DNA of 64,000 bases from Chloroflexota bacterium (GTDB lineage Bacteria > Chloroflexota > UBA11872), in assembly GCA_965220135.1 (NCBI GenBank), contig OZ244802.1, forward strand, positions 2,532,239-2,596,238, given 5' to 3'. Below the pieces are notes generated by a model that worked only from the letters and a program-made list of their open reading frames with translations, had not been told where the DNA came from and did no database searches. Shown piece by piece: positions 268 to 46,367 of this stretch. Position numbers and translations under genes: made by a program. Numbering within the stretch: the stretch's first letter is position 1; the number at the start of each line of letters is the position of its first letter.

Positions 268-1269
268 ATGATCAAGATTGGCTTGCGTCTCGTCGACCTC
301 TCGAACGACCACCTGCAATACGCGGCGCAGATCGGCGTGGACGGCGGCACCCTGCGCACCGACGAACTGCCGGGCGTGGCCGAAACGGGTCAGGTCGACG
401 CCGCCGGGCTGCGCGACCTGCTGCAGCGCCTGGATACCCTGAACCTCGAACTGGCCGGCATGGAGCTGCGCCGCGCCCGCATCGCCGGCGTCCTGCGCGG
501 CGATCCCGAGGGCGACGGCGAGATCGACGACCTCTGCGAGACGATCCGCGTCCTCGGCGGCGAAGGCGCCCCACTGGTGACCTGCGGCTTTGCCGTGGCT
601 CATGCCGACGAACACATCCAGGGCTGGCGCGGCTACAAGGACCTGCCGGGCGGACGCGCCGGCACGGAGCTGCGCACCTTCGACGCCGCCTGGGTCGAGG
701 AGTCCGACCTGGTGACCTGGGGCGTCGACACCGGCGACCCGGCCGTGCGCGTGCCGATTGACGAGGTCTGGCGCCGCATGGACGGCTTCATGGAGCGCGT
801 CCTGCCGGCCGCCGAATCGGCCGGCGTACGCCTGGCCTTCCATCCCAACGACCCGCCGCTGCCGCTCTACCGCGGCGTCGAGCAACCGTTCGTCAATCCG
901 GCCGGGCTCCAGCAACTGCTGGAGCGCTACGACAGCCCCAACGTCGGGCTGCTGTTCTGCCTGGGCACCATGCAGGAGACCGGCGAAGACATGCCGGCCG
1001 CGCTGCGCTCGTTTGGCGAGCAAGGCAAGCTGTTCACCATCCACTTCCGCAACGTGCGCGGCGTCATCCCGCGCTTCGAGGAAGTCTTCCAGGACGAGGG
1101 CGACTACAACGCGGCCGACCAGATGCGCACCTTGCACGAGGTCGGGTTCGACGGCTTCGTGATGCCCGACCATTACCCCGGCCTGCTGGGCGACAACGAA
1201 GCCCGCGAACGCGCCCGCGCCTGGTGCGTCGGCTACCTCCGCGCCCTCATCCAGGCCACCGCGCCATAG
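268..1269 (+). CDS. mannonate dehydratase-like protein (xylose-isomerase-like TIM barrel, UxuA family)
   Basis: 333 aa. FHPNDPP matches the hPDDPP metal-site motif of UxuA-type TIM barrels. The N-terminus MIKIGLRLVDL...QIGVDGG has the UxuA-like pattern. Strong GC3 codon bias. Confidence 0.5.
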   Translation: MIKIGLRLVDLSNDHLQYAAQIGVDGGTLRTDELPGVAETGQVDAAGLRDLLQRLDTLNLELAGMELRRARIAGVLRGDPEGDGEIDDLCETIRVLGGEGAPLVTCGFAVAHADEHIQGWRGYKDLPGGRAGTELRTFDAAWVEESDLVTWGVDTGDPAVRVPIDEVWRRMDGFMERVLPAAESAGVRLAFHPNDPPLPLYRGVEQPFVNPAGLQQLLERYDSPNVGLLFCLGTMQETGEDMPAALRSFGEQGKLFTIHFRNVRGVIPRFEEVFQDEGDYNAADQMRTLHEVGFDGFVMPDHYPGLLGDNEARERARAWCVGYLRALIQATAP

Positions 1270-1291: not shown

Positions 1292-3130
1292 TCAGGCGGC
1301 TGGTTGACCGACCCGCTGGTAGCACGCGGGGTCCAGGTCATCGAGTAACGGCGACCGCGCGTCCGCGCAGCAGACGATCGACAGGTTGCGGCTGGACCGC
1401 GTCAGCGCCACGTAGAACTGCGCCCGTCGGCTGTCGATCGGGATGACGTCGAGCACGGGGTCAAGAAGATAGACGGACGTGAAGTCCAAGCCCTTGGCCG
1501 CATGGATTGTGGCGACCGAGACCGACGCACCGTCCGGCGGGCTGTCGCGGTCCACGGTCTGGACCGACAGGCCCGCTTGCTCCAGGGCAACCCGAGCTTC
1601 GTCTCGCCGGCGGTTCCTTCCGGCCAGCACGGCGATCTGTCCAGCTGGACGCCCTTGCCCGAGCTCTGCCTGGATCCATTCGACAATGACCTCGAGACCC
1701 TCCTGTTCCGTGACGAACCGGGCCACCCGGGGCAACGGCCCTTCGCGTTCAGCCTCGGCCATTTCGCCAATCTCGCGGCGCGTCTCGTCAACATTCGCGT
1801 ACAGCGACGCCGCCAAGGCATGAATCTGGCGGGTTGAGCGATAGGGACGGCGCAGGGTGAGCGCCTGGCGACCTCGTGGGCCGAACTCGCGCCGCGCCCA
1901 GAGAAAGCGGCCCGGGTAGAGCGACTGCGCCGGGTCGGCCAGGATCAGCAGCCGCTGCTCCGCGCCCGTTACCAGCACCTTTGCCAGTCGCGCCATGACC
2001 GGCGAACAGTCCTGACCTTCGTCCACGATCACGTCGCGGTAGCGAGGCGGATCGAGGTCGCCCGCGCGGGCGACCCGGGCGCGTTCGATCAGGTCCTCCC
2101 AACCATCGAGTGCGTCGTCGCGTCGCCGGATACGTCGATGCAACTGCCAGATCGCCTCTCGCTGCGGACGGCGTAAGCGGACCAGGCCCTGTCCTTCGGG
2201 CCGCGTCAGGTTGAGGTAAGGCGTGATCCCGTCGAACTGATTGGGGCTTAGCACGCGGTCGACTTCGTTACAGAGCACGTCGTCGGGAAGATCGCCGAGC
2301 GCGTCTCGAGAATCCGCGGGCAGTTGCTGGCGCTCCTCGGGAAGCGCCGCGCGCAGCCAGTCACCGAACATGTCGACGTTCTTTGCGACCGAGTAGTCAG
2401 CGCCACGCCGCTGGAGGTACCGCTCGGCCCAGCCATGGAAGGTGTTCACCTCGATTTGCCGCGCCACCGCCGGCTGGGCCAGCAGGTCGATCGTGCGGCG
2501 GACCGACAGCATCAATGCGCGGTTGTAGCAGAGATAGAGCACCAGCCCGCCTTCGAGATCCGGCTGCGTGGCCTGGCGCAGGGCTCGGTGGATGGCAATT
2601 GAGGTCTTGCCGGTGCCGGCGCCTGCGGTGACGAACGAGAGGCCGCGGCGATTGCTCTTGGCGGCGTCAAATTCCACGAGAAACCGCTGCTGCTCGTCCA
2701 GGGCCGAGAAGTAATGCTCGTAGCCGCGCGCTGCCAACTCGTCCAGTTCGTCCGGGTCGCCTATCGGGAAGGGTTCCTGCGACAGAACGCTTGGCGCGGG
2801 CTCGGGCCGTTCCAGGATTTCGCACCGCCTGGGGATATCTCCACGGTGCCGGTCCATCCACGCGTACGCTTCGTCGTGGTTGTCGACCCACAACACCACG
2901 ATTCGCTCGTCGGTTCGGGCGAAAATCAGTCGGTAGGCCTGCGTGATCCGCGCCGAGCGCACCTCCAAGCCGCTGGCGTATCGATGTAGCAACTCATCGT
3001 TGAGGCCACCTCGACGGTCTCTCCCACTCAGACGGCGGATGGCCTCGAGCGTCTGGTTCTCATGGCGGCCGCTGAGCCGGTTCAGCGCGCGTGGGAAGTC
3101 GTAGCCATGAAATAGAGATAGACCCGGCAT
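1292..3130 (-). CDS. UvrD/PcrA-like superfamily 1 DNA helicase with N-terminal RelE/ParE-like domain
   Basis: 612 aa. Helicase motifs present: Walker A AGAGTGKTS, motif II VIVDEGQD, motif VI VALTRSSRNL, plus a C-terminal ATIHAAKGLDFTSVYLL block. The first ~100 aa (…RITQAYRLIFARTDERIVVLWVDNHDEAYAW) resemble the RelE/ParE toxin fold signature YRxxYxxxDxxxxVxxVxHRxDxY. Confidence 0.8.
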   Translation of the reverse strand: MPGLSLFHGYDFPRALNRLSGRHENQTLEAIRRLSGRDRRGGLNDELLHRYASGLEVRSARITQAYRLIFARTDERIVVLWVDNHDEAYAWMDRHRGDIPRRCEILERPEPAPSVLSQEPFPIGDPDELDELAARGYEHYFSALDEQQRFLVEFDAAKSNRRGLSFVTAGAGTGKTSIAIHRALRQATQPDLEGGLVLYLCYNRALMLSVRRTIDLLAQPAVARQIEVNTFHGWAERYLQRRGADYSVAKNVDMFGDWLRAALPEERQQLPADSRDALGDLPDDVLCNEVDRVLSPNQFDGITPYLNLTRPEGQGLVRLRRPQREAIWQLHRRIRRRDDALDGWEDLIERARVARAGDLDPPRYRDVIVDEGQDCSPVMARLAKVLVTGAEQRLLILADPAQSLYPGRFLWARREFGPRGRQALTLRRPYRSTRQIHALAASLYANVDETRREIGEMAEAEREGPLPRVARFVTEQEGLEVIVEWIQAELGQGRPAGQIAVLAGRNRRRDEARVALEQAGLSVQTVDRDSPPDGASVSVATIHAAKGLDFTSVYLLDPVLDVIPIDSRRAQFYVALTRSSRNLSIVCCADARSPLLDDLDPACYQRVGQPAA

Positions 3131-3370
3131 GAGGCCGCCCGTCCTCTGTGCGCGTCTCTGTGAATGCGACTCGGCTGAGTCCGAGCGCCAGTCTATCGGC
3201 GGCCGGCTCTTGTCGAGACCACGCGGCCTGGCACGCCCGTCAGATCAATGGTTCCGCGGGCAAGCCGCAGTGCTGGGCGGATTCGCGGCGAGTCGAGACG
3301 GCGCTGAGTTGGAGCGTACGATCAGCGGTACCCGGGGCCTTGAGCGCTGAGATGCATAAGGACGAGCCGC

Positions 3371-4342
3371 ATGAGTGATCCGGTGAAGGTTGGATTTGTT
3401 GGGGCGGGGCACCTGGCGAGCCTGGTGCATTACCCGTCGCTGGACGAGATCGACGCAGCGGACCTGCGGGCGATTACGGAGTTGGACGAGGACAAGCTGA
3501 CCGCCACCGCGGACCAGTACGACGTGCCGGGGCGCTATACCGACTACCGTCGCATGCTGGAGCGCGAGGACCTGGACGCCGTTTACGTGGTGATGCCGCC
3601 GCACCTGCTGCACGACATCGTGATCGACTGCCTGCAGGCCGGGAAGCACGTCTTCATCGAGAAGCCGCCCGGCGTCTCGACCTACGAGACGGAAGCCTTC
3701 GCCTGGTACGCCGAGCAGCACGGCTGCCTGACCATGACCGGCTTCAACCGCCGCTTTATTCCCCTGCTGCGCCACTGCAAAGAGGTCGTTGAGGCGGCCG
3801 GCCCCATCCACATGGTCGCCGCGCGGTTCCACAAATTCGACACCTGGCCCGACCAGTACGGCTTCTACCGGGGCTCCGTCAGTCACCTGACTTCCGACAT
3901 CATTCATGCCGTCGACTCGTTGCGGTTCCTGGCCGGCGGCGAGGTGGTGGAGGTGAACGCCCACACGCGCGCGCTGGGCCGCCCCTACATAAACGTGCAT
4001 GCCGCGCTGATCGAATTCTCCACCGGCTGCTCAGGCGTGCTGCTGGCCAGCCGCCGCGCCGGCGCCCGCCGCCACACCTTTGAGATCCACGGCGGCGACG
4101 TCTCCGCCTACTGGGAGGACGGCGAGGAGGGCATGATCTATCGCGCCGACGCAAGGACTCCCGAGTTCGTGCGGGGAGCGGATCTGGTCGGCACCGACGC
4201 CCCCCATCACCGCTCCGGTTTCCTGGCGGAGAGCCGCCATTTCATGGAGAGCATCCAGGCCGGCGCCCAACCCCTCACCAACTTCGCGGAAGCCGCCAAG
4301 ACCATGCGCCTCGTCGACCAGATCGCGGCGGAGGTGCGCTAG
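3371..4342 (+). CDS. Gfo/Idh/MocA family NAD(P)-dependent oxidoreductase
   Basis: N-terminal Rossmann motif VGFVGAGHLA and EKPP motif (HVFIEKPPG) typical of the family. 323 aa. Confidence 0.85.
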   Translation: MSDPVKVGFVGAGHLASLVHYPSLDEIDAADLRAITELDEDKLTATADQYDVPGRYTDYRRMLEREDLDAVYVVMPPHLLHDIVIDCLQAGKHVFIEKPPGVSTYETEAFAWYAEQHGCLTMTGFNRRFIPLLRHCKEVVEAAGPIHMVAARFHKFDTWPDQYGFYRGSVSHLTSDIIHAVDSLRFLAGGEVVEVNAHTRALGRPYINVHAALIEFSTGCSGVLLASRRAGARRHTFEIHGGDVSAYWEDGEEGMIYRADARTPEFVRGADLVGTDAPHHRSGFLAESRHFMESIQAGAQPLTNFAEAAKTMRLVDQIAAEVR

Positions 4343-5830: not shown

Positions 5831-6526
5831 ATGGGCTTTGCCAACGCCGTCCGACAACTCCGCGAGCAGCGTCGCCTGACCAAGGCGGCGCTCGCTGCGC
5901 GTTGTGGGCTGGCGCCTTCCTATCTCTCTCGGCTGGAGAGTGGCGACTACAAGAGTCCAACCGTGGCCACTCTGGTAACGCTGGCCCGGGGCCTGGAGGT
6001 GGACCCGCGGGAACTGCTGGCGCTGGCCGGCTACGTTCCCGACGACATGGCCAACACGCGCCGGCGCTTTGCGGAAGAGACGATAGCCAGCGTGGCGGAA
6101 TCGGCCATCCGCTCGATTTCGCGCACGGTCAGCACCACGCTCAATCCCGACCACGACGACAGCGATGACGAGCAGCTCCACGTGGACCGGGGGCTCCTGG
6201 CGGAGCGGCTGCGCACGCGTCGTCGTTCCGACCGCCTGACGACTCGGCAAGTCGCGCGAAAGGCCGGCGTGCGCGTGAGCGTGATCACCGACCTCGAGGC
6301 GGGCCGAGAGCCGTCCGCCGCGATCGACCTTGCGCAGTTGGTCGCCCGAGGGTATTCGCTGACCACGTCCGAGGTTGATGACCTGCTGTTTGAGGTTGGC
6401 TTGAGCCAGTTCCTGGCCGAGGACATTGTCCTGTCGACCGAGTCGCGCCGCATGACGCTGGAATTCGCCCGCCTGGCGCGGATCCGCGACCGTCACAGCC
6501 GCCAGGGCACGGGTCTGGGCGACTAG
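5831..6526 (+). CDS. XRE-family transcriptional regulator with two helix-turn-helix domains
   Basis: Two HTH_XRE-like segments: LTKAALAARCGLAPSYLSRLESG and LTTRQVARKAGVRVSVITDLEAG. Divergent from the osmC promoter region. Confidence 0.75.
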   Translation: MGFANAVRQLREQRRLTKAALAARCGLAPSYLSRLESGDYKSPTVATLVTLARGLEVDPRELLALAGYVPDDMANTRRRFAEETIASVAESAIRSISRTVSTTLNPDHDDSDDEQLHVDRGLLAERLRTRRRSDRLTTRQVARKAGVRVSVITDLEAGREPSAAIDLAQLVARGYSLTTSEVDDLLFEVGLSQFLAEDIVLSTESRRMTLEFARLARIRDRHSRQGTGLGD

Positions 6527-10767: not shown

Positions 10768-12138
10768 CTAGTCGGCCAGGTGGACCCGGATGGCTTCGAT
10801 ATCCGCCTTCAGCTGATCCTCAAGCTTTAGCCGGCGCTCGATTTTGTTGCAGCCGTGCAACACCGTGGTGTGGTCGCGTCCTCCCAGCACCCGCCCGATT
10901 TCGGGAAAGGTTTCCCGACCGTCGTTGCGCATCAGGTACATGGCGACCTGGCGCACGCCTGCCGTTCGCGCGTCGCGACGCTTCCCGAGCAGATCGTCTT
11001 GCGCCACGTCGTAATGCCGGGACGTGGCGGCCAGGATGGCGGCAGTGGCGGGCGGGCGACTGGCGGCTGCGCGGCCGAGGCCGGACAGCGCCTGTTCAGC
11101 GGCGGCGGGCTGCAACTCCAGGCCGTGCAGCTCGGCGTAGATCAGAGTGCGGGTCAACGCGCCTTCCAGTTCCCGAACGTTGCGTGTAATGCGGTCAGCC
11201 AGGAAATCCACGACATCCTCGGAGACACTGGCGCCGGACGCGGCGGCGTGCTGGTGCAGGATCATGCGCCGCAGGTCCAGGTCGGGCGCCTGGATGTCGG
11301 CCACCAGCCCAACCTCAAAGCGGCTGCGCAGGCGGGCTTCAAGGCGGGCGATTTCACGCGGCGGGCGATCACTGGTCAGCACGATCTGACCGCCGGCCTC
11401 GTAAATCGCGTTGAAGGTATGGAACATTTCCTCCTGCGAGGCTTCGGTTCGAGAGAGGAACTCGACGTCGTCCACCATCAACAGATCGACGGTGCGATAG
11501 CGCTCGCGGAAGCGGCGACGCCGGTCACCGCGGCTCTCGGTGCGGATCGCATGTAACAGATCGTTGACGAAGGTCTCGCAGGGCACGTACCGCATGCGAG
11601 TCTCGGGGCGCCGCGCCAGGACGGCACGGCCGATGGCATGCAGCAGGTGCGTCTTGCCCAGGCCCACCCCGCTATAGAGAAAGAGCGGGTTATACACGTC
11701 GCCCGGTCGTTCGCTGACTCGAAGCGCGGCGGCGTGGGCCAGGCGGTTCGAGGAGCCGACTACGAAGCGCTCAAAGGTGTATCGGGGATTGAGGCGTACG
11801 CCGGGAGCGGCGCTGGCGGCCGTCGTTGCCGCCGGGGTCGGGACTGGCGCCGGGGCCGGATCCGCGAGCCAGGCCGGCGGGCCGGCGGGCTGCTCGGCCT
11901 GCACGACAAAGGTAACGTGTACATCACCGCCGTGCGCCTTTGAGACCGCGCGTGCGACCATCTCACGGTAGCGCCGGGTTACGATTTCCTTGGCGAATAC
12001 GGTCGGGACCGCTACGACAATCTCGCGCCCGCCAGCGCGGACGAACTTCGCATCTCGAAACCATGCCGCAAAATCCGCTTTCGGAACCTCGACTTGCAGC
12101 GCGCCGAGAGCCGCCTCCCACGTGCGTTGGCTCAGCAT
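10768..12138 (-). CDS. dnaA: chromosomal replication initiator protein DnaA
   Basis: AAA+ Walker A GVGLGKTHLLHAIG. Box VII and sensor motifs are present. C-terminal DNA-binding domain ...HTTVLHGCNKIE... The likely start is the internal ATG (MLSQRTWEAAL...); the ORF track extends to 12240. Confidence 0.95.
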   Translation of the reverse strand: MLSQRTWEAALGALQVEVPKADFAAWFRDAKFVRAGGREIVVAVPTVFAKEIVTRRYREMVARAVSKAHGGDVHVTFVVQAEQPAGPPAWLADPAPAPVPTPAATTAASAAPGVRLNPRYTFERFVVGSSNRLAHAAALRVSERPGDVYNPLFLYSGVGLGKTHLLHAIGRAVLARRPETRMRYVPCETFVNDLLHAIRTESRGDRRRRFRERYRTVDLLMVDDVEFLSRTEASQEEMFHTFNAIYEAGGQIVLTSDRPPREIARLEARLRSRFEVGLVADIQAPDLDLRRMILHQHAAASGASVSEDVVDFLADRITRNVRELEGALTRTLIYAELHGLELQPAAAEQALSGLGRAAASRPPATAAILAATSRHYDVAQDDLLGKRRDARTAGVRQVAMYLMRNDGRETFPEIGRVLGGRDHTTVLHGCNKIERRLKLEDQLKADIEAIRVHLAD

Positions 12139-12595
12139 CCCATCCCCGGTAGCCGCACCGCGCCTTTGGTGCGGGAGAAGAAGACTAGCAAAAGGCCGCA
12201 TCCGGAGTGATCGGTAGCAAACCTGTAAGCCCGCGACCAATCGGGATGCTTGAGTTGACTTTAGTGAAGTTCATCGCCTGAAGCGAGGCTCGCGGGCGCG
12301 TCACCCCGGATTGTCCAGCCGGGCTACTTCAAGACCTGACACCACGGCGAGGAGCGGCAGCGTTACGCGCGACAAGGGAACGGAGGCTGCAATGAGTTTA
12401 AGTTAACCAGCTGTAGAGCCAGGGTGCTCGTCATCGGCATGGACGCGGTGGTCCTGAACCTGAGACAGCAACACTATTGACAATTTGGAGTTACCAGAGT
12501 GCATGGGCCAGCGCCCGAATCGCCGTGGTCGCGGGCGTACAATCGGGAGACAGGCGTTACACGCGCGCGCGGTTCGCGCAGAGGAATGGAAGGCA

Positions 12596-12862: not shown

Positions 12863-15034
12863 TTGGCTGCCTCGGCTGGTGGCGATGCTGGTCTGCTCCT
12901 GGGTGTGAGCGCGAGTCCGGCCCGCGCGCTGGACTGCGGATCAGCCGCCGGCATCCCGCTGGACGACGGCTGTCTTTTTACGATCACGGGCTCCGACACG
13001 CCGGAGCCGGCAGACGGATTCGCCGTGACCAACGCCGACGGCGTGCCCCTCTGGGACTTCGTCCGGGGCAAGGATCCGCAGGCGATCGGCTATCCCATCA
13101 GCCAGCGCTGGACGGACGGGCCGTTCACCCTGCAGGCGTTCCAGAAAGTGATTCTGCAGTGGGACCCGCAGCGCGGGCGGATGAACTACTACAACACGCT
13201 GGACGCGCTGGCGACCCGCTATGCGTATGTCGCGCTGCCCAACGTACCGGGCCACGACGTGCTGGCCGAGGACACCGGAGCTGCATTTGCCCAAGTGATC
13301 CGGAATCACCTGGCAATCCTGGAGCAGAACGACCGGATCAAGGCGCGGTTCCTGGCGGAGCCGGACTGGCTGAACCTGTACGGGCTGCCAATCCGGTACG
13401 AGGAGCGGGCGGTCAACGGCAATCCGCTGGGCCTGCAGGCGCTACGCACGCAGCGGACGGTGTTCGAAGTGTGGAACGTGCCGGCGCCGGGAACGACACC
13501 TGGCCGCGTGCAACTGCAGAACGTGCCGGACAAGGTCAAACGGCTAAGCAACGTGATCATCCCGGACGCTGCCAAGACGCCGGCAGCGCTGCCCGAGCCG
13601 GCGCTCCCGCCCAAGATCAGGTCCCTGCCCTGGGCCGCTGACGGCGTGACGGATTCCGAGCAGCGACTCGCCACTAACCTTCAGCGGATCGCAGGGGCGT
13701 CGCAGGCGATCTATGGGCGCCTGCTGAGCGGGCCGGCCGCGAGCTGGTTGGAAGGCCAGCCATCCGAGCGAACGCTCGGGGCAACCGAACTGCTCGTGAC
13801 CATTGCCGAGCACCCCTGGTCGGCAGCCGTGCGGCAGCAACTCTTGGACCACACCCTGCTCCGACTGGTCCTGAACGAAGGCGAAGATGACTGGCCACGG
13901 TCGTTCCGACGGATCCTCGAGAAGCCCTGGACGAGGGACGGCGTGTCGTGGGATGAACTCAAACTGATCGACGAGTTCGCCTATATGCATCGAAGATTGC
14001 CGACCAACCCGTGGTCCGGTTCGTATTTCGGAAAAAGCCAGGAGATGGACGTACTGTTGGGGCAAATGCTCGACATGCCGTTTCTGCAGACGATTGAAGG
14101 CTACGAGGTGTCGATCATAGGCAGACTGAGCGGAACCGGACAGGGCATGGATTACCTGCAGAAGGCTGTAACCGGCTGGATACACAGGGGTGGCATTACG
14201 GACGATCAAGTATTGGCATACCTGTATCCGCTGTTTCCGCGAAATACGATTGATCCAGACGACTTCAGAGAGCATCCCGAGCGGCTCGGTGAGCTTCTCG
14301 ATTTAAACCGGCTGGGTATCACCATCGAAAGACGCACCGTCAGCCTGCCGCATACCGGGAACCTGCTCTTGATCATACTTCGAATGGGCGCGACGTTACC
14401 GTCCACAATGGATGTCCTGGAGCAGGAGACGCGCAGGATCGAGGCGCTCATTGGAGAACCGCTGAAAAAGAGATATACCATTCTGCTTCTCTGGGAGCAG
14501 CCACCAGACACGGTGCTGTTACCGTCAGCGTATAATGCCGGATATTTTATGCAGTTTGACGCTGAGCATTTCTCGCGCGCGAGTGTATCGACTGTCACGA
14601 AATCCAACCTTGCTTACTTGTTGTCGGACTACTATTGGACAGGAGCAGACCCTTGGATAAGCAGGGGAGCCGCCATGTTCCTGGTGATGCGAGGGGGACA
14701 TGCCAGTCGCGAACAACTGTACGACGTACACTCGAGGTGTGAGACTGAACGGATCGTAGATCTCCTGGATGATATGCGTGACTTTGGTGTGTGTTATCAG
14801 TCGCTCGGGGCCTCTCTGTTCTTGGAGATATACGACGCACTGGGCGACAGGGCGTTTAAGGATGGATTTGCGCGCTTGGAGAGAGCGGTGGACGCGGACG
14901 GCTTATATTGTCTTTGCGGACTTGAACGTAAGGAGTCAGTGGTTCACGCAAGGGAGTCGTTCACGACCGCGGCCACGGAGGAAGTCAGGGGCGTGGTGGA
15001 GGGAATCATCACGCGGAGGTATTACGGGCAGTAG
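12863..15034 (+). CDS. large hypothetical protein with N-terminal LGFP-like repeats
   Basis: 723 aa. LGFP-like units: IGYPISQRWTDGPFTLQAFQKVILQWD and YGLPIRYEERAVNGNPLGLQALRTQRTVFEVW. The remainder has no recognisable motif. TTG start; the N-terminus and signal peptide are uncertain. Confidence 0.6.
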   Translation: MAASAGGDAGLLLGVSASPARALDCGSAAGIPLDDGCLFTITGSDTPEPADGFAVTNADGVPLWDFVRGKDPQAIGYPISQRWTDGPFTLQAFQKVILQWDPQRGRMNYYNTLDALATRYAYVALPNVPGHDVLAEDTGAAFAQVIRNHLAILEQNDRIKARFLAEPDWLNLYGLPIRYEERAVNGNPLGLQALRTQRTVFEVWNVPAPGTTPGRVQLQNVPDKVKRLSNVIIPDAAKTPAALPEPALPPKIRSLPWAADGVTDSEQRLATNLQRIAGASQAIYGRLLSGPAASWLEGQPSERTLGATELLVTIAEHPWSAAVRQQLLDHTLLRLVLNEGEDDWPRSFRRILEKPWTRDGVSWDELKLIDEFAYMHRRLPTNPWSGSYFGKSQEMDVLLGQMLDMPFLQTIEGYEVSIIGRLSGTGQGMDYLQKAVTGWIHRGGITDDQVLAYLYPLFPRNTIDPDDFREHPERLGELLDLNRLGITIERRTVSLPHTGNLLLIILRMGATLPSTMDVLEQETRRIEALIGEPLKKRYTILLLWEQPPDTVLLPSAYNAGYFMQFDAEHFSRASVSTVTKSNLAYLLSDYYWTGADPWISRGAAMFLVMRGGHASREQLYDVHSRCETERIVDLLDDMRDFGVCYQSLGASLFLEIYDALGDRAFKDGFARLERAVDADGLYCLCGLERKESVVHARESFTTAATEEVRGVVEGIITRRYYGQ

Positions 15035-37388: not shown

Positions 37389-38684
37389 ATGAGCGACGCC
37401 TCGATCCGCTTCGTCCACTTTGCGGACGTTCACCTTGGCTTCCGCCAGTACGGGCTGTCCGAGCGCGCCGCCGACTTCGTCCGAGCCTTCGACGACGCGG
37501 TGGACTACTGCCTGCGGGTCGCGCCGGACTTCGTGGTGATCGCCGGCGATCTCTTCGACTCCAAGTCCATCGAACCGTCCACCTACGCCGCCGCCGACAT
37601 CGCGCTGGAGCGCCTGGCCCGGGCCGGCATCCCGGTCGTCGCCAACGAGGGCAACCACGAGCGCTGGTTTCGGCGCGGCGAGCGCTCCTGGCTCTGGCAA
37701 CTGAGCCGCCACGGCCGCCTGCGCCTGCTGCGGCAGTTCGATCCGCTCACCGGCGAGTTGCAGGCCCGGCCCTGGTCCAGCGAACGCGGCTTCGGCGCCT
37801 ACACCGACATCGGCGCCGCCCGAGTCTTTGGCGTGGAGTACCTGGGCGCGCGGTTGGCGGCCCATCTCCCTGAAATCGGCGCCTCGCTCTCCGCGGTGCC
37901 CGCTGGCGGCCAGCGCGCGGTGATTGGCCTCCTCCACACCGGCGTGGATGAAGCCGTCCACCTGGGCGTCGGCGGAGTGACCCTGGAGGACCTGGCCCCC
38001 ATCCGCGCCTTCACCGACTACCTGGCCCTGGGCCACGTGCACTACGAATACCACCTGCCCCAGCACAACCCCTGGATCTTCAACCCCGGCGCGCTCGAGG
38101 CCCACAACATCCTGGAAGGCCTGATCGGCGAGCCCAGCGAAGGCGAAGGGCGGGTCAGGGGCCTGTACGACGTAACGCTTCGCGCCGGCCGGCCGGCGGC
38201 GGTGGAGGCCGAGTTCCGGGACGACGTGGTCTCCCGTCGCCCCTTCCGGCGCTGGAGCGTCGACGCTAGCGAGGCCGCCGACTTCGATCAACTGTGCACG
38301 CACGTCGACCAGGCCGTATCCGGACGCCTCGAACTCTTCAACGAACCGCCGGTAATCGAGCTGCGGCTGACCGGCCGCCTGCGCTTCGAGCGCATTCACC
38401 TGGACACCGAGCTGCTGGCCGAAATCGTGCGCCAGTCGTTCCAGCCGCTGCATGTGCGCGTGACCCTGCAACTGGCCGGCGATCGGCGCCGAAGCGCCGC
38501 CGCCCGCTACGGAACCAACGTGCGCGCCATCGAGCGCGATGTACTCGTGCAACTAATCAAGGAATCGCCGCACGCCGACGAGGCCGAGGTGCTCACCGCC
38601 GCCGCGCTGGACTTGAAGTCCGCGGCACTTGAGGGTCAATCGCCCGAGGCGCTGGCGCAACACCTGGAACGGCGGCTGGGCTGA
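37389..38684 (+). CDS. sbcD: DNA repair exonuclease SbcD/Mre11 family (calcineurin-like phosphoesterase)
   Basis: Motifs IRFVHFADVHLG, VVIAGDLFD and NEGNHE. Confidence 0.9.
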   Translation: MSDASIRFVHFADVHLGFRQYGLSERAADFVRAFDDAVDYCLRVAPDFVVIAGDLFDSKSIEPSTYAAADIALERLARAGIPVVANEGNHERWFRRGERSWLWQLSRHGRLRLLRQFDPLTGELQARPWSSERGFGAYTDIGAARVFGVEYLGARLAAHLPEIGASLSAVPAGGQRAVIGLLHTGVDEAVHLGVGGVTLEDLAPIRAFTDYLALGHVHYEYHLPQHNPWIFNPGALEAHNILEGLIGEPSEGEGRVRGLYDVTLRAGRPAAVEAEFRDDVVSRRPFRRWSVDASEAADFDQLCTHVDQAVSGRLELFNEPPVIELRLTGRLRFERIHLDTELLAEIVRQSFQPLHVRVTLQLAGDRRRSAAARYGTNVRAIERDVLVQLIKESPHADEAEVLTAAALDLKSAALEGQSPEALAQHLERRLG

Positions 38685-38685
38685 C

Positions 38686-41487
38686 GTGTTCGTCCACGAG
38701 GTCGCGCTGCGCAACGTCAAGAGCTTCGTTGAAGCCACGGTCAGGTTTCAGCCCGGCCTCACCGCCGTCGTCGGTCCCAACGGCGCCGGCAAGACAACCC
38801 TCCTGGAAGCTATCGGCTACGGCCTCTTTGGCTTCATGCCGCACCGGCCCCAGGTGCGCTTCATGCGCCACGGCACGACGGAGGCCGCGGTCCAGGTGGA
38901 ATTCACCTCGCCCCGCGACGGCCGCGTCTACCGCGTAGAACGCACCATGCGCCGCCCCCGCTCGCGTGCTACCGGCAAGCTGGCTGACAACGCAGCTACG
39001 ACCGTCTCCCTCTTCGATGTCGAGCTGAACCGCTCCATCGACCAGCCGGCCGCTGAGCTGGAAGCCTGGCTGGCAGGTCAACTGGGCGTGGAAGGCCTCA
39101 GCAGTCCGGCCGACGTCTTCGAACACGTGGTCGGCGTGCCGCAGGGCCGCCTCACGGCTGATTTCCTGGACTCCCCCCGCCTGCGCAAGGCCCGCTTCGA
39201 CCCCATCCTGCGCACCGCCGAGTACCAGCAGGCCGCGGACTCCCTGCGCAGCCTCACGCAGCACTACGCCGAGGCGCGGCACGAGCTGCAGGTCAAGGCC
39301 TCCAACCTGGAAGGCCGTCTCGCCGCCGAACCGGAACTGTTGGCCCGCCGGTCCGCGGCGAGGAAAGCGCTGGAGCAGACCCGGGCGGCGGAAGAACAAG
39401 CCGCCGCCGACCTGGAAGCGGCGAGCGCCTGGTTGTCGACGCAGGACGCCGGCCGCGAGGCCTTTGAAGCCGCTGAGCGGTCGCTCGCCGCCGCCGTCGA
39501 GCGGCGCCAGCAGGCGGCTGCGCAGGTCAAACGCGCCAGGGCCGCGGTGCACGAGGCCCGGCGTGCGGCGGATGTACTCGACGAGACCCGCGCGGCGCAC
39601 GGGGCCTACCAGGCGGCGCAGGCGCGGGCCGCGGAACTCCAGCCCGTCGAATCCCGGGCGCGCGACCTGGACCTGGAACGCGCTCGCCGGGCCGCCCACC
39701 TGGACCGGGCCCGGGATGACCTGGCGGAAACTCGCCGGGAGGTCGGAAAGCACGTGTCCCTGATCGAGGTCGAGCCCGACGGAGATCCTGAAGCGCGGTT
39801 TCGCCAGGTGCGGACCGCATTCCGGCAAGCGGTCGAGGAGGCAAGGGAGCGAAAGGCCAGTGCCGATACTTCCTTCCGCCAGGCCCGGGAGGACACGCGC
39901 ACGCTGCACTCCCGCTGGATGCGCGAGCGCGAAACCGTCGGTCAGGCCTTCGACCAGGGACGCCGGCGCCTCAGGCAATTGGAGGCTCGCGCCGAGGTCG
40001 CCGCCGAACTTCCCGACCGCCGAACGCTGCTGGAGCGGCGCCGCCGGGAGCGCGCCACTGTTGAAGCCCTGCTGGAAGCCGACCGCCACGCCCAGCGCCT
40101 GCTCACCGATACCCGAACCTGTCCCTTCTTCACGGACGTCTGCCGCAACCTGGAGACCATCCCCGACGTGGCCGGCGTCTTCCGCCGGCAGGCGACCGAG
40201 CGCGAACGCACGCTTGTGGATCTTCAGGTAGCCATCGCGGAAGCGGAACGTGCGGTCGCCGCGGCGGAGCAGGCTGAAACCGAGGCCCGCCACGCCGCCG
40301 TCGCCCACGAACGCCAGGCCGTGCTGCACCGCAACCTGGATTCGGCCGACGTCGACATCGCCGCCGCCACCGCGCTGCTGGACGCGCTGGACACGCGGAA
40401 TGCGGGCGAACTCGCCGCGTTGGCGGACGGCCAGCCTCCCGCCTCGAGTGCTCGGGAAGTGCTGGCGCAGTCCGCTCGGCGCGCCTCGAGTGCGCTGGCT
40501 GAATTGGCCTCCACCAAGGAGCCGGCGTCAAGCGCCGCCGGTACCGAACTCTTGGCCGTCGCCCACCACCGCGCGGCCGCATCCGCGAGTGCGCTACGAC
40601 AGACTGAGGCCGAGCTAGAGGCCCTCCGCGACGACCTGAAGACCCTGGCTGACGCGCGATCTGCCCTGGACGACAACGCCGAGGGGCACACCCGCTTCCT
40701 TCAGCACCAGGTCCTGGCCGGGCAGCTTCAAACCCGAACCGCCGAGCTTGAATCGGCCCGGCAAGCCGCCGCGCAGGCCCAGAAACTTGAGGCCGCCGCG
40801 GAAGCTGAATTGGCGGCGGCCCGCGCCGAGTTCGACCCGAAGGCGCTACTGAAAGCTCGCCAGGCCCGCGACGCCGCGCTCGGCCTCGCCCGCCAACTGG
40901 CTGAACGTGCGGCCCGCATGCGGGCCGACGTGGAACGCCTCACCGCCGACGTGGAAGCCCTCCGCCAGGTGCGCGCGGACCTGGAATCCGCGCAGGCCGG
41001 CATCGTCCGCGTCACCCGCCTGGAAGACCGCACCGAGTTCATCCGCCGCCTCCTGCGCGACGCCGGGCCCCTGGTCACCGAAGTCCTGCTGGCCAGCGTC
41101 TCCGACAGCGCCGACGAGATCTACAGCGACATCATGGGCGCCCCCGGCGGACGCCTGCGCTGGGCGGCCGACTACGACATCGTGCTCGGTCGCGGCGGCC
41201 TGGAACGCCGCTTCGGCCAGCTTTCCGGCGGCGAACAGATGGCCGCCGCCCTGGCCGTCCGCCTGGCCCTGCTCCGCGACCTGCTGAACCTGGATATCGC
41301 CTTCTTCGACGAACCCACCCAGCACTTGGACGCCGAACGCCGCGAGAACCTGGCCCAGCAAATCCTCGCCGTCCGCGGCTTCAGCCAGCTCGTCGTCATC
41401 TCCCACGACGACACCTTCGAACGCCACATCGACAACATCATCCGAGTCACCCACACCACCCAAGCCAGCGCAGTCGAAGTGGGCTAG
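38686..41487 (+). CDS. sbcC: DNA repair ATPase SbcC/Rad50 family
   Basis: The GTG start at 38686 is 1 nt after the sbcD stop. Walker A GPNGAGKTT. Long coiled-coil middle region. C-terminal signature LSGGEQMAAALAVRLAL and Walker B AFFDEPTQHLD. Confidence 0.9.
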   Translation: MFVHEVALRNVKSFVEATVRFQPGLTAVVGPNGAGKTTLLEAIGYGLFGFMPHRPQVRFMRHGTTEAAVQVEFTSPRDGRVYRVERTMRRPRSRATGKLADNAATTVSLFDVELNRSIDQPAAELEAWLAGQLGVEGLSSPADVFEHVVGVPQGRLTADFLDSPRLRKARFDPILRTAEYQQAADSLRSLTQHYAEARHELQVKASNLEGRLAAEPELLARRSAARKALEQTRAAEEQAAADLEAASAWLSTQDAGREAFEAAERSLAAAVERRQQAAAQVKRARAAVHEARRAADVLDETRAAHGAYQAAQARAAELQPVESRARDLDLERARRAAHLDRARDDLAETRREVGKHVSLIEVEPDGDPEARFRQVRTAFRQAVEEARERKASADTSFRQAREDTRTLHSRWMRERETVGQAFDQGRRRLRQLEARAEVAAELPDRRTLLERRRRERATVEALLEADRHAQRLLTDTRTCPFFTDVCRNLETIPDVAGVFRRQATERERTLVDLQVAIAEAERAVAAAEQAETEARHAAVAHERQAVLHRNLDSADVDIAAATALLDALDTRNAGELAALADGQPPASSAREVLAQSARRASSALAELASTKEPASSAAGTELLAVAHHRAAASASALRQTEAELEALRDDLKTLADARSALDDNAEGHTRFLQHQVLAGQLQTRTAELESARQAAAQAQKLEAAAEAELAAARAEFDPKALLKARQARDAALGLARQLAERAARMRADVERLTADVEALRQVRADLESAQAGIVRVTRLEDRTEFIRRLLRDAGPLVTEVLLASVSDSADEIYSDIMGAPGGRLRWAADYDIVLGRGGLERRFGQLSGGEQMAAALAVRLALLRDLLNLDIAFFDEPTQHLDAERRENLAQQILAVRGFSQLVVISHDDTFERHIDNIIRVTHTTQASAVEVG

Positions 41488-43255: not shown

Positions 43256-44341
43256 CTAGGACGCTTCGACCTCCCGCCACGCCTCCGCCAGATGCTCCTG
43301 CACCTTCACCGGCAGTCCCGTCCGGCTGCTTTCGATCGCGGCCGTCACCAGCGCCACCGACTGCAGGTTGTCGATCACGTTCGTCTCCATCGGCTCGCCG
43401 CCTTCCAGCCAGCGCACGAACTTTTCGATCAGCCACACGTGGCCCCAGGCCGGCTGCTCCAGCCAGGGTACGGTGTGGCTGTCGCCTTCGGCCTTGATGC
43501 GAGCATTGCGCGTCGGGTCGAACGGGATGCACTCCAGGCGGTCCGATCCGAGGATCAGCGTCGCCCCTTCGCACTCCGCGCGCGTGTTCTCGCGGCCCCA
43601 CCCGTCCAGCCCCACGGCGTTCACTTTGGAGCCCTCGTAGGTGGCCCGCACGCCGTTCTCGAACTCCATCGTCACCAGCGCCTGGGCGTCGCCGGCGAAT
43701 TCGCTCCACGCGGGATTCCAGGTCCGGGCGTAGATGGTGTCGCACTTCGCGCCGGCCAGATCGGCCAGGATGTCCAGGTGGTGCACCGACCCCTCCACCA
43801 GCAGCGGATCGTCCATTTGGTACCGGAAGCCGAGCCCCCACGCCCCCAGCTGGCGCGCCTCCTGTGTGAACCGGAACACCAGGTAATTCAAGTCTCCGCA
43901 GCGACCCGACCGCAGGCTCTCGCGCATCGTCGTCTTGTACTGGTTGAAGCGATGGCTCATCGTCACCGCCATCTTCTTGCCGGCCTTCGTCACCTTGTCG
44001 GCAATCCGCACCGACCCCACCAGCGTGTCCGCGATCGGCTTCTCCGAAAGGATGTGCAGGTCGTGGGCCACCGCCTGGTCAACGATCTCCTCGTGCGAGT
44101 ACGGCGGCACGACCACGGTGCAGAAATCAGCCGGGTTCTCGTCGAACGCACGCTGGATGTCCGTGTAGCACTGCGCCTCACCTAGTCCAAGATGCTCCCG
44201 GGCGTTCGCCAGCACCTCGGGGTTCGTATCCACCGCGGCCACGACCTCGATCAGCCCCGCCGCAACGTGCGGTGGCAGGAAGTCCCGACACCAAGTCGCT
44301 CCCATCCCGCCGGTGCCAACCTGGATCATTCGCAGGGCCAT
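43256..44341 (-). CDS. Gfo/Idh/MocA family oxidoreductase (third copy)
   Basis: MALRMIQVGTGGMGATW Rossmann motif and SEKPIA motif. 361 aa. Confidence 0.8.
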   Translation of the reverse strand: MALRMIQVGTGGMGATWCRDFLPPHVAAGLIEVVAAVDTNPEVLANAREHLGLGEAQCYTDIQRAFDENPADFCTVVVPPYSHEEIVDQAVAHDLHILSEKPIADTLVGSVRIADKVTKAGKKMAVTMSHRFNQYKTTMRESLRSGRCGDLNYLVFRFTQEARQLGAWGLGFRYQMDDPLLVEGSVHHLDILADLAGAKCDTIYARTWNPAWSEFAGDAQALVTMEFENGVRATYEGSKVNAVGLDGWGRENTRAECEGATLILGSDRLECIPFDPTRNARIKAEGDSHTVPWLEQPAWGHVWLIEKFVRWLEGGEPMETNVIDNLQSVALVTAAIESSRTGLPVKVQEHLAEAWREVEAS

Positions 44342-44494
44342 GCTTGGATCTCCTGGGAGCGTCCGTCCGGCGATACGCTCGCCGAGGACACAACGTCACT
44401 CACCACGATAGACGCTGCCCCACCTGCGGCGCCGCCCCGAAAGCGGACAGGGCTCGACCGAAAACCGGCAGTGTCTTCGGCCTGCGCGACAGGG

Positions 44495-45883
44495 CTAACT
44501 GCCGGCCCGCAGCGCCTCGAACTGGTGGTACACCGGCGTCTCGCCCGGCTCGGTCATAAACACCGAGTACACGGACGCCCGCTGCGCCGTCAGCCGGATC
44601 CGCGTCGGCCGCCCCACCGGCGCTTCCGCCTGCCCCACGCCCCGCCACTCCACCCGCTGCGCCGTGGAGTCCCCGTTGATCGGCCTGCAGTCCGCCGCCG
44701 TGAACCCCGGCAACGGCCGCGCCTCCGCGTCTTGCAGTTCCACCCGGACCTCGCCATCGTCCGCCGTGCTCGCGTTGACGAACACGTCAACCGATGGCGG
44801 AACGAAAATGATCGTCCCCAGCTCCGCCGCCGCCTCGCCCGCCCGCAGCGCCACGAACCGGTCCGGCTTCAGCCGCGCCAGGCCCAGGCCGGCCTCCTGT
44901 GGATTCACTTCCCAGCGGCTGGAGTGCCGTTCGTTCGTGCCCGCGTAGTAGTAGCGAATCTCGTCGTCCAGGAAGATCGGCTGCGAGGCCGGCTGCAAAT
45001 TGCCCGAGTCCCACTCATCCGCGGCCCCGTTCGGAATGAACGCCGTGCCCTGCTCGGCCCGGTGCCAGGCCGTACCGGTCCGCGCGTATGCCAACTCCGG
45101 CGTCTGCAGACCGTCCATCTTGTTCGGCCCAAGGTCGTCGCGGTCGGTGGCGTAGATCCACAGCGTGCCCACTTCATACGGCCCGTAGGCACAGGCGCCC
45201 AGTCCATAAAACTGCGTTTGCGGTGGATCGCCAGGATTGGGCTCCAGCACCATCTGCGGCTCGCCGGACCAGTGCAAAAAGTCCCACGACTCGCTCCGAA
45301 ACACCCGTCGCCCGTATCCGGCCATGCGGTGGTAGGCCGCGAACCGTCCATCCGGCGCTCGCAGAAAACCCATGGGGCAATCGGGCATCGTGGCAACGGC
45401 CGGCTGTATCCGACCGGCAAACGTCCGCGCCGGTTCCCAGTGAATCCCGTCCGCGCTGTGAAACGCGGACACGCATCCCGACGGCTCGGCGCCCGTCAGC
45501 AGCTTGTACCGCCAGGCCGGCCGCGGGTCCTGCAGGTCTTCGAGTATCGCGGGGCCGGTCTGCCCGGCGGCGAACACGATGTTGGTCCGTCGCCCACCGT
45601 CCGTGAACACATCCAGGTCCGGCTTGCGCCAGTGCAGCCCGTCGTCGCTCTCCGCGTAGGCCAGCTGTTCCGTCCAGGGCGCTTCGATCACCTCGTACCA
45701 GGCCCGAAACCGCCCGTCAGCCGCCCGGATCACGCTCCCGAACAGCTGCATGTTCCCGTGCTCCCACGGCAGATCCGGCCTCATCAGCGGCGCATCCGCA
45801 TGCTTCACCGGCTGCTCAACCGCCCGCGCAAAGCCCTCCACGTACTCCAATTCCCAATAGTCAAAAAACAGCAACTTCTTCAT
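44495..45883 (-). CDS. hypothetical glycoside-hydrolase-like beta-propeller protein
   Basis: Start MKKLLFFDYWELEYVEGF with an AGGAG SD. 462 aa. Family not confidently assigned; GH130/GH43-like flavour. Confidence 0.5.
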   Translation of the reverse strand: MKKLLFFDYWELEYVEGFARAVEQPVKHADAPLMRPDLPWEHGNMQLFGSVIRAADGRFRAWYEVIEAPWTEQLAYAESDDGLHWRKPDLDVFTDGGRRTNIVFAAGQTGPAILEDLQDPRPAWRYKLLTGAEPSGCVSAFHSADGIHWEPARTFAGRIQPAVATMPDCPMGFLRAPDGRFAAYHRMAGYGRRVFRSESWDFLHWSGEPQMVLEPNPGDPPQTQFYGLGACAYGPYEVGTLWIYATDRDDLGPNKMDGLQTPELAYARTGTAWHRAEQGTAFIPNGAADEWDSGNLQPASQPIFLDDEIRYYYAGTNERHSSRWEVNPQEAGLGLARLKPDRFVALRAGEAAAELGTIIFVPPSVDVFVNASTADDGEVRVELQDAEARPLPGFTAADCRPINGDSTAQRVEWRGVGQAEAPVGRPTRIRLTAQRASVYSVFMTEPGETPVYHQFEALRAGS

Positions 45884-45944
45884 CGGAACCACTCCTGCCG
45901 CCTGGCAACACCGATAGAGTTCGATCCTACGGCTCCTCGCGCGC

Positions 45945-46367
45945 CTAAGCGTCCACCAATTCGATCCGGTCACCGTACCGGCGGAAGTCCGCGCCATTGA
46001 ACGTCAGCAGCCGGCGCTCGCCGTGGGCGAGCATCGTCGCCACGATGTTTGCGTCGTGAATCTGCCGTCCACCAACGGGGAATTCCCGGCACAGGTCTAA
46101 CAGCGACTCGGTAACCAGGGAGCCGTCCTCAAGAATCTCGAAGTTGCGAAGCAGTCTGCGGACGTCAGCAAGGGCGTCTCCTCGGGTTATGCCCACCGGC
46201 CAGGTCTGCGGACGTGTGACGACGGCCAGGTACTCGCGTACGACCTGCCGGCTGATTCTCAGCGGCTCAGGGTCTCGAAACGCACGCTCCAGGCTTGCCC
46301 GAGCAGCGTCGTGGTCTGGCGCGCCAGGAATTCGGGAATTCACCAGCACGTTGGTATCAACAAACAT
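45945..46367 (-). CDS. PIN-domain ribonuclease toxin (VapC-like)
   Basis: Start MFVDTNVLVNS. PIN acidic residues in FVDTNVL, IHDANIVATML and LLTFNGADF. Confidence 0.7.
   Translation of the reverse strand: MFVDTNVLVNSRIPGAPDHDAARASLERAFRDPEPLRISRQVVREYLAVVTRPQTWPVGITRGDALADVRRLLRNFEILEDGSLVTESLLDLCREFPVGGRQIHDANIVATMLAHGERRLLTFNGADFRRYGDRIELVDA

Follow-up and report, generated by a model that had tools for sequence, protein, structure and literature searches.

What does a toxin-type ribonuclease (RNase) fold do at the front of a helicase, when no antitoxin accompanies it? The question is raised by a gene near one end of a 64-kb stretch of Chloroflexota DNA (contig OZ244802.1; 'the window' below means the whole of this stretch, 64,000 nucleotides, as analysed). 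RelE-family toxins are normally seen as small proteins restrained by a dedicated antitoxin; here a RelE/YoeB-like domain is followed by a linker and then by a helicase of superfamily 1A (SF1A), all within one polypeptide. The answer we favour, from sequence and from predicted structure, and with somewhat more confidence than doubt, is that the product is a self-contained motor plus RNase, in which the helicase would regulate the RNase domain in place of an antitoxin. The gene, called RelE-UvrD here, is laid out as follows.

1292..3130, minus strand: RelE-UvrD coding sequence, complete, from the list of open reading frames (ORFs); 612 amino acids plus stop
2819..3130, minus strand: predicted RelE/YoeB-fold domain, residues 1-104, isoelectric point (pI) 9.6; from AlphaFold2, Foldseek and a profile search
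2702..2818, minus strand: acidic linker, residues 105-143, partly disordered, pI 4.05
1295..2701, minus strand: SF1A (UvrD/Rep/PcrA-like) ATPase/helicase core, residues 144-612; from Pfam, Foldseek and phmmer

The reading frame at 1292-3130 is a genuine gene and not a chance ORF of high-G+C DNA, because its helicase matches in Pfam exceed their cut-offs, it has full-length homologues, and the ratio of nonsynonymous to synonymous substitution (dN/dS, by the method of Nei and Gojobori, against orthologous genes) is 0.08-0.18 in every region. About 55 clusters of homologues, 35-96% identical, align along 95-100% of the length, a span that takes in the N-terminus, and the ATG start is aligned in five orthologous loci. 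Against the orthologue P0004, dN/dS is 0.086 for the whole gene, 0.108 for the RelE domain and 0.080 for the helicase; both modules are under purifying selection, with ratios of about 0.1. The original prediction, made from the letters alone, had placed a RelE/ParE-like module at residues ~1-100 of an intact UvrD-type helicase; the peptide it quoted is residues 48-91 of the 612-residue translation.

In the AlphaFold2 model of residues 1-106 (predicted local distance difference test, pLDDT, 84.9; predicted template-modelling score, pTM, 0.78) this region is a separately folded module, running beta-alpha-alpha-beta-beta-beta-beta-alpha (strands at 5-8, 45-50, 56-61, 66-72 and 76-84; helices at 12-17, 21-35 and 85-95). 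Foldseek, run with it against the PDB, gave as best match the archaeal RelE 1wmi_A (E=8e-6; template-modelling (TM) score 0.77, target-normalised), and ranks 1-30 were all toxins of the RelE/YoeB/YafQ/HP0894 type, YoeB, RelK, Thermus RelE, YafQ and RelE2 among them; ParE structures stood below YoeB, RelE and YafQ. The structure search that had been proposed for the N-terminus thus returned a RelE fold, rather than a standard UvrD accessory domain or no RelE-like fold at all. Sequence profiles point the same way: a profile of 31 N-terminal regions of the family, run against all PDB sequences, had RelE-superfamily toxins as its nine best matches, headed by E. coli YoeB (E=2.4e-4), which aligned near full length (16-84 against 16-83). 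Scans of the single sequence with Pfam, NCBIfam and PADLOC left the N-terminal domain below threshold (ParE_like E=0.013, YoeB 0.06, HigB 0.14); sub-threshold Pfam matches among the 31 members went to ParE_like in 14, HigB in 11, ParE_toxin in 6 and YoeB in 4. A weak match of residues 5-55 to pPIWI_RE_Z (2966-3118, minus strand; PADLOC E=0.0022, Pfam E=0.027), where the first strand and two helices lie, was judged to be probably non-specific helical similarity.

In E. coli YoeB, Glu46 is the general base and His83 the general acid, Arg59 and Arg65 stabilise the transition state and contact the mRNA, and Tyr84 is the fifth residue of the set (PMC3814384). Four of these five catalytic or mRNA-contact residues have near-invariant equivalents in the window protein, placed by a hidden Markov model alignment to YoeB 2a6q_E and counted across 198 homologous domains.

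2993..2995, minus strand: E46, equivalent of YoeB Glu46; E in 173 of 198 domains, H in 18
2948..2950, minus strand: R61, equivalent of YoeB Arg59; R in 188 of 198
2930..2932, minus strand: R67, equivalent of YoeB Arg65; R in 197 of 198
2858..2878, minus strand: H85-D-E-A-Y89-A-W91 signature, where helix alpha3 starts; H85 corresponds to YoeB His83

Within the signature H85 is kept in 197 domains, A88 in 195, W91 in 194, D86 in 190 and Y89 in 178, and in the full-length model the helix spans residues 85-104. Model and alignment together indicate that residues 1-104 take up a RelE/YoeB-type fold with an RNase-like active site retained. Of the two names in the label 'RelE/ParE' the first is the closer, since the domain lies nearer the RNase branch (YoeB/RelE) than ParE; a gyrase poison of the ParE kind was considered and ranked under an RNase, as the YoeB, RelE and YafQ structures outrank those of ParE and the YoeB catalytic residues are conserved. 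The domain has the fold of the free toxins (TM 0.72-0.77, normalised to the toxins), their Glu/Arg/Arg/His residues and their basic character. It differs from them in how it is carried: YoeB and RelE are free proteins of ~85 amino acids with an antitoxin gene, whereas this domain is fused, is not accompanied by an antitoxin gene, and runs at its C-terminus into the conserved HDEAYxW helix and from there to the helicase, with Asp at the position of Tyr84.

The motor is intact, as had been claimed. Pfam UvrD-helicase (residues 161-405; 58.5 bits, cut-off 23) and UvrD_C (residues 535-588; 56.7 bits, cut-off 25.6) are matched, with UvrD_C_2 and AAA_19 also above their cut-offs in the core; helicase motifs I, Ia, II, III, IV, V and VI are all present in residues 144-612. 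The invariant residues listed are those of a 24-sequence alignment (A1).

2603..2623, minus strand: Walker A / motif I, GAGTGKT, with K175; G172, T173, G174 and K175 invariant
2009..2032, minus strand: Walker B / motif II, VIVDEGQD, with D370 and E371; D370, E371, Q373 and D374 invariant
1394..1942, minus strand: motifs III (ADPAQSLY, 397-405), IV (YRSTRQI, 430-436), V (TIHAAKGLDF, 541-550) and VI (FYVALTRS, 572-579); D399, Q402, Y430, R431, K546, G547, V574 and R578 invariant

Foldseek with the full-length model (pLDDT 84.9, falling below 50 between the modules, at residues 107-118) found UvrD of D. radiodurans and of E. coli as best matches (E~5e-21), then PcrA and Rep, and more weakly HelD; phmmer searches of the PDB with the helicase part matched UvrD, HelD, Rep and PcrA. 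The motor fold and its motifs are common to all of these, whereas the window core is much shorter than theirs (~470 amino acids) and a RelE-like N-terminus replaces their accessory domains. The NCBIfam equivalog models for UvrD, PcrA, Rep, helicase IV and HelD scored 23-61 bits against cut-offs of 419-1168; being so far under every cut-off, the window protein is not UvrD, PcrA, Rep or HelD proper.

One way to understand the pairing is to place the control of the RNase in the motor itself. In this perspective the polypeptide comprises two putative enzymes, a YoeB/RelE-type endoribonuclease and a compact, UvrD-like SF1A motor driven along nucleic acid by ATP. That is, the helicase module would engage a nucleic-acid substrate or signal; binding of ATP, or translocation, would then control, release or position the RNase domain; the helicase would in this way do the regulating for which an antitoxin is missing; finally, the RNase would cut RNA, its target being either mRNA on the ribosome, as for YoeB and RelE, or transcripts that the motor encounters. 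The purpose served might be defence, or surveillance of nucleic acids. There is precedent for a RelE-fold RNase controlled by a fused sensor rather than by an antitoxin: Cami1, an ancillary RNase of type III CRISPR systems, is a CARF-RelE fusion in which the RelE domain is gated in cis by a CARF domain that binds cyclic oligoadenylate. Cami1 structures 8phb and 8phj match residues 1-106 in Foldseek (E=2e-3; TM 0.62, query-normalised). Its sensor is a CARF domain and not a helicase, its domain order is reversed, and its kinship with the window protein is limited to the fold.

How unusual is the fusion? The original prediction took such fusions to be unusual; on the contrary, they are widespread. 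The long form, of ~700 amino acids and with the same HDEAYxW signature, amounts to at least 7,987 clusters at E<=1e-20 in a profile search; its members are annotated 'UvrD-helicase domain-containing', '3'-5' exonuclease' or, in many JGI entries, 'mRNA-degrading endonuclease RelE'. A search of the literature found the RelE-UvrD architecture described once, in 2025, under the name ArmD, for the fourth of the proteins that make up the ARMADA type II anti-phage system (bioRxiv 10.1101/2025.09.15.676423). Type II operons have a strict order: ArmA (a BrxHII-like SNF2 protein), ArmB (a PglX-like methylase), ArmC (a YprA-like helicase) and ArmD, whose helicase is termed 'GajB-like'; protection needs all four genes, and is abolished by ArmD K266A (bioRxiv 10.1101/2025.09.15.676423). 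The suggestion that related architectures occur in phage defence was thus well founded.

An ArmD-type protein for direct comparison is encoded by the E. coli IncY plasmid NZ_AP027623.1 (L097:4347-6461): a 704-residue 'ATP-dependent helicase' with Walker A and B residues at K266 and D454, numbered as in the ARMADA paper, its gene lying directly 3' of a gene for a 2113-residue DEAD/DEAH helicase, the size of ArmC (L097 1-6461). The window protein gives two collinear BLASTP matches to it, one over the RelE domain (32% identity, E=7e-11, residues 2-120 against 6-128) and one over the helicase (28% identity, E=8e-34, residues 123-596 against 219-701). The two proteins share the two-domain design, the HDEAYxW signature and the conserved E/R/R/H residues. 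They differ in the middle: ArmD-type residues ~129-218 are unmatched by the window protein in BLASTP, as in alignment A1, and both place the linker at 105-143 where ArmD-type proteins, at ~700 residues, carry a helical inter-domain insert of ~90 residues, for which Pfam gave no match. They differ also in company, ArmD having ArmA, ArmB and ArmC as operon partners and the window gene sitting in a conserved housekeeping locus among no such neighbours. The anti-phage role of ArmD is demonstrated, whereas for the window protein defence is one of two putative roles. It belongs to a distinct short lineage in the ArmD superfamily that lost, or never had, both the insert and all the partner genes.

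The plasmid locus bears on another suggestion of the original prediction, a context in plasmid maintenance, for which nothing was found: the plasmid copy examined is the one that lies directly 3' of the ArmC-size helicase gene. In tblastn searches plasmids matched the helicase part alone at E<=1e-8, and phages yielded one weak match; these comparisons lend no support to an origin of the short form in plasmid maintenance or in phages. The ArmC-size and ArmD-type pair is itself carried by IncY and other plasmids of E. coli and Klebsiella, with 15 Escherichia plasmid records matching.

Kinship was placed by neighbour joining of 57 helicase-core sequences over 443 columns, a simple distance method, and the rooting of the tree is tentative. 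The short forms make up one clade, separate from the long forms, in 100/100 bootstraps; the RelE/NERD-UvrD assemblage as a whole splits from UvrD2/PcrA-like outgroups, likewise in 100/100, and E. coli ArmD is placed among the long forms. Since the tree sets the short forms apart, the window protein is best classed, on core sequence, as a sister lineage of ArmD and not as ArmD proper. NERD-UvrD proteins (PADLOC candidate C3a187, 'NERD+UvrD') have a helicase of the same superfamily and an N-terminal effector that is NERD, not RelE-like; three of them (P0070, P0071 and P0077) nest within the long-form clade, beside the long form P0059. P0073, whose N-terminus is of the classical ParE_toxin type, falls beside the short forms, and the best PADLOC model for the window protein itself is 'NERD+UvrD' (4.6e-26, residues 144-590). 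From these three observations the N-terminal position appears to behave as an exchangeable effector slot.

Where the gene sits is less easily accommodated by a role in defence. Its surroundings in the window are these.

268-1269, plus strand: UxuA-like/xylose-isomerase-like TIM-barrel gene (Pfam), convergent with RelE-UvrD
3131..3370, no strand assigned: divergent intergenic spacer shared by RelE-UvrD and the oxidoreductase gene; from an alignment of five orthologous upstream regions
3371-4342, plus strand: GFO/IDH/MocA oxidoreductase gene, divergent from RelE-UvrD across the 240-bp spacer
5831-6526, plus strand: Xre-type gene with a double helix-turn-helix (HTH), 2.7 kb from RelE-UvrD
10768-12240, minus strand: dnaA (Bac_DnaA, E=2.7e-63), ~8 kb from RelE-UvrD

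The same neighbourhood recurs in five Chloroflexota genomes spanning 62-96% protein identity, in the conserved order dnaA, parB, rhomboid, Reg_prop protein, double-HTH protein, OsmC, two small ORFs, GFO oxidoreductase, RelE-UvrD, UxuA-like and GCS2. Synteny with the orthologous loci leads one to expect parB in the window just before dnaA, at about 9.6-10.7 kb; with dnaA and the expected parB, the window probably includes the region of the chromosomal replication origin. G+C content of the gene equals that of its flanks, and those members of the short-form clade (~55 clusters) with a named source are all Chloroflexota. The window gene is best read as a fixed, vertically inherited chromosomal resident of this Chloroflexota lineage. 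A short, insert-less and partner-less lineage of this kind, fixed near the replication origin region, appears to be undescribed so far. The comparison of neighbourhoods that had been called for gave a divided result: defence contexts for the ArmD-type relatives, and for the window gene a conserved chromosomal housekeeping context rather than a defence island.

Several observations weigh against a motor-plus-RNase used in defence. Conserved housekeeping surroundings near dnaA and a uniform G+C content are atypical of defence genes; a place in the core genome is as compatible with domestication as with defence. YoeB Tyr84 is left with no direct equivalent, the aligned position being D86 (190/198); a conserved tyrosine, Y89, stands one helical turn past D86, four residues beyond H85. 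No curated toxin model reaches its cut-off on the single sequence, the best, ParE_like, scoring 16 bits against 24.4, with YoeB, HigB and TIGR02116 all below theirs. In ArmD, the mutants made were confined to the Walker motifs, with none in the RelE domain, and ARMADA protection is reported to be direct and non-abortive, with no growth arrest (bioRxiv 10.1101/2025.09.15.676423). Because protection takes this form, the RelE-like domain of the related ArmD may not be a toxin that shuts off translation globally.

A further and more specific proposal supposes that the short RelE-UvrD is a minimal, one-gene, antitoxin-free toxin-motor, domesticated into the core genome of a Chloroflexota lineage, in which the helicase gates a YoeB-type RNase in cis, and that it serves either to give immunity through a single protein or to survey RNA where replication, transcription and translation conflict. 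We offer it tentatively, as a conjecture more apt to fail than to hold. If it were true, such a domesticated toxin-motor would be the simplest experimental handle on the role of ArmD's RelE domain. The wider interest is in control: an RNase fold with catalytic residues, joined to an ATP-driven helicase and lacking an antitoxin, here and in thousands of ArmD-type relatives, implies a logic different from that of the small toxins. A shorter version that occurs naturally on its own, and is kept by purifying selection, could offer a simple means of asking whether the helicase gates the RNase, and which RNA is cut; its fixed position by the replication origin, within a single phylum, also leads one to ask whether part of a defence system was recruited for a housekeeping job.

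A second perspective does away with catalysis. It supposes that the RelE-like domain is a non-catalytic adaptor that docks the helicase onto the ribosome, onto RNA or onto another protein, and that the whole is a housekeeping helicase, acting for example at conflicts of transcription, translation and replication. Strict core-genome synteny ~8 kb from dnaA in all five genomes is what such a protein might show. Other short forms also lie amid metabolic genes: P0031 and P0045 between 2-oxoacid:ferredoxin oxidoreductase genes and a gene for a 6-pyruvoyl-tetrahydropterin synthase (PTPS), and P0028 between MFS transporter and amidohydrolase genes. Mobile-element and defence genes were not seen near the window gene, within its uniform G+C; the C-terminal half weakly resembles the RNA-polymerase recycling motor HelD (NCBIfam and Foldseek); and an equivalent of Tyr84 is missing. 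Scores on the HelD, UvrD, PcrA and Rep equivalogs, however, are 40-60 bits against cut-offs of 419-1144, and sister proteins fill the same N-terminal slot with a different nuclease domain, NERD. The near-invariant residues, moreover, correspond to the general base, the general acid and the two arginines of YoeB, and a pure docking module need not keep them all. Because the invariant residues are specifically the catalytic ones, an adaptor is ranked under the motor-plus-RNase; we consider it unlikely, and still the alternative most worth keeping in mind.

A third account would make the window protein a bona fide ArmD, working with ArmA, ArmB and ArmC partners whose genes lie at other places in the genome. 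Both of its domains are homologous to those of an ArmD-type protein, and the long-form relatives do adjoin the expected genes: one of their arrangements, a PglX-like methylase with a YprA-like DEAD/MZB helicase, is that of ARMADA type II (L009/L010 and L019), and at L013 and L021 the gene upstream of the long form bears MZB and is truncated by the contig edge. The type II operon order, however, is strict (bioRxiv 10.1101/2025.09.15.676423). A Pfam scan of the ten largest window ORFs found no SNF2, PglX-like or YprA-like gene, and none of SNF2, PglX-like or YprA/MZB type lies within ±10 kb at the five syntenic loci. With the short form also in a clade of its own at full bootstrap support, and devoid of ArmD residues ~129-218, this account is very improbable.

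Less probable again is a classical type II toxin whose antitoxin acts in trans or was missed, the helicase being incidental. The fold is that of the RelE superfamily, and the Xre-type double-HTH gene, 2.7 kb off, might be taken for a partner; that gene, however, is absent from the contexts of other short forms. Residues 1-135, searched against 1.84 billion representative proteins, gave 130 matches with the domain N-terminal in every one; Walker A is present in 42 of the 43 matches of at least 550 residues, and the shorter ones look like gene fragments. Selection on the helicase is at least as strong as that on the RelE domain, which sits ill with an incidental helicase. No conserved small ORF was found upstream or downstream of RelE-UvrD, and no antitoxin family was matched by the two plus-strand ORFs of the spacer or by nearby ORFs of 70 and 78 amino acids. 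The claim that no antitoxin-like gene lies upstream therefore holds, in view both of these small ORFs and of a spacer that is poorly conserved.

That the protein is a Gabija-type GajB helicase, or the inert remnant of a degraded defence system, is hardly credible: PADLOC does return many partial GajB matches (best 2.7e-19), and the ARMADA authors used the term 'GajB-like' of the ArmD helicase (bioRxiv 10.1101/2025.09.15.676423), but these matches cover segments of the protein only, no GajA (OLD/TOPRIM) gene is adjacent to RelE-UvrD, and for a remnant the motifs are all intact and a dN/dS of ~0.1 excludes decay.

The divergent spacer gives few clues to regulation. That the promoter side faces a divergent oxidoreductase gene was correctly noted from the start. 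In the alignment of the five upstream regions only the ~25 nucleotides preceding the ATG are kept, including a purine-rich element, AGAGGACGGGCGG, immediately 5' of the ATG (about 3135-3147, minus strand). A sigma-70 consensus scan of 3131..3370 returned no promoter-like site, and no LexA-like or other conserved operator was evident in the five-locus alignment.

Relatives elsewhere show how varied the contexts of the fusion can be. A second arrangement of long forms has a ResIII helicase and an N6_N4 methylase as a pair directly 5' (L004, 4101-15596; L030, 2378-17817; L057, 915-8489), and seems to be a further multi-gene context, separate from that of ARMADA type II. What follows in L004 is a gene for a giant protein of 1142 amino acids with RNase_H_2 and SF1 helicase, and in L030 an ORF of 1945 amino acids. 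Among the short forms, in the subclade of P0031 and P0045, RelE-UvrD overlaps by 4 nt the start of the PTPS (QueD-like) gene (L005, 11845-12369; L092, 6621-7127), and this overlap suggests that the two genes are co-transcribed. The deep-branching short forms P0053 and P0054 lie in mobile or defence-rich regions whose wider contexts differ; each is directly preceded by a gene for a 240-residue protein of the EEP family (Exo_endo_phos), 69% identical between the two loci (L091, 2249-2971; L007, 6773-7501). The EEP gene and the short form may constitute a two-gene module. That the EEP gene is a relic of the EEP domain of ArmC was considered and rejected, in that it has no BLASTP similarity to an ArmC. 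A scan of genome contigs with a generic Walker B plus motif V pattern gave, among the matches listed, distant relatives (<=31% identity) and no Chloroflexota orthologues.

Elsewhere in the window, four long ORFs, of 723 (12863-15034, plus strand), 602 (44192-46000, plus strand), 907 (50535-53258, plus strand) and 681 amino acids (59062-61107, minus strand), have no Pfam match at E<=1e-5, and could be uncharacterised proteins or spurious ORFs of high-G+C DNA. At 38629-41487 (plus strand) a 952-residue SMC_N/AAA_23 protein, SbcC/RecN-like, is encoded.

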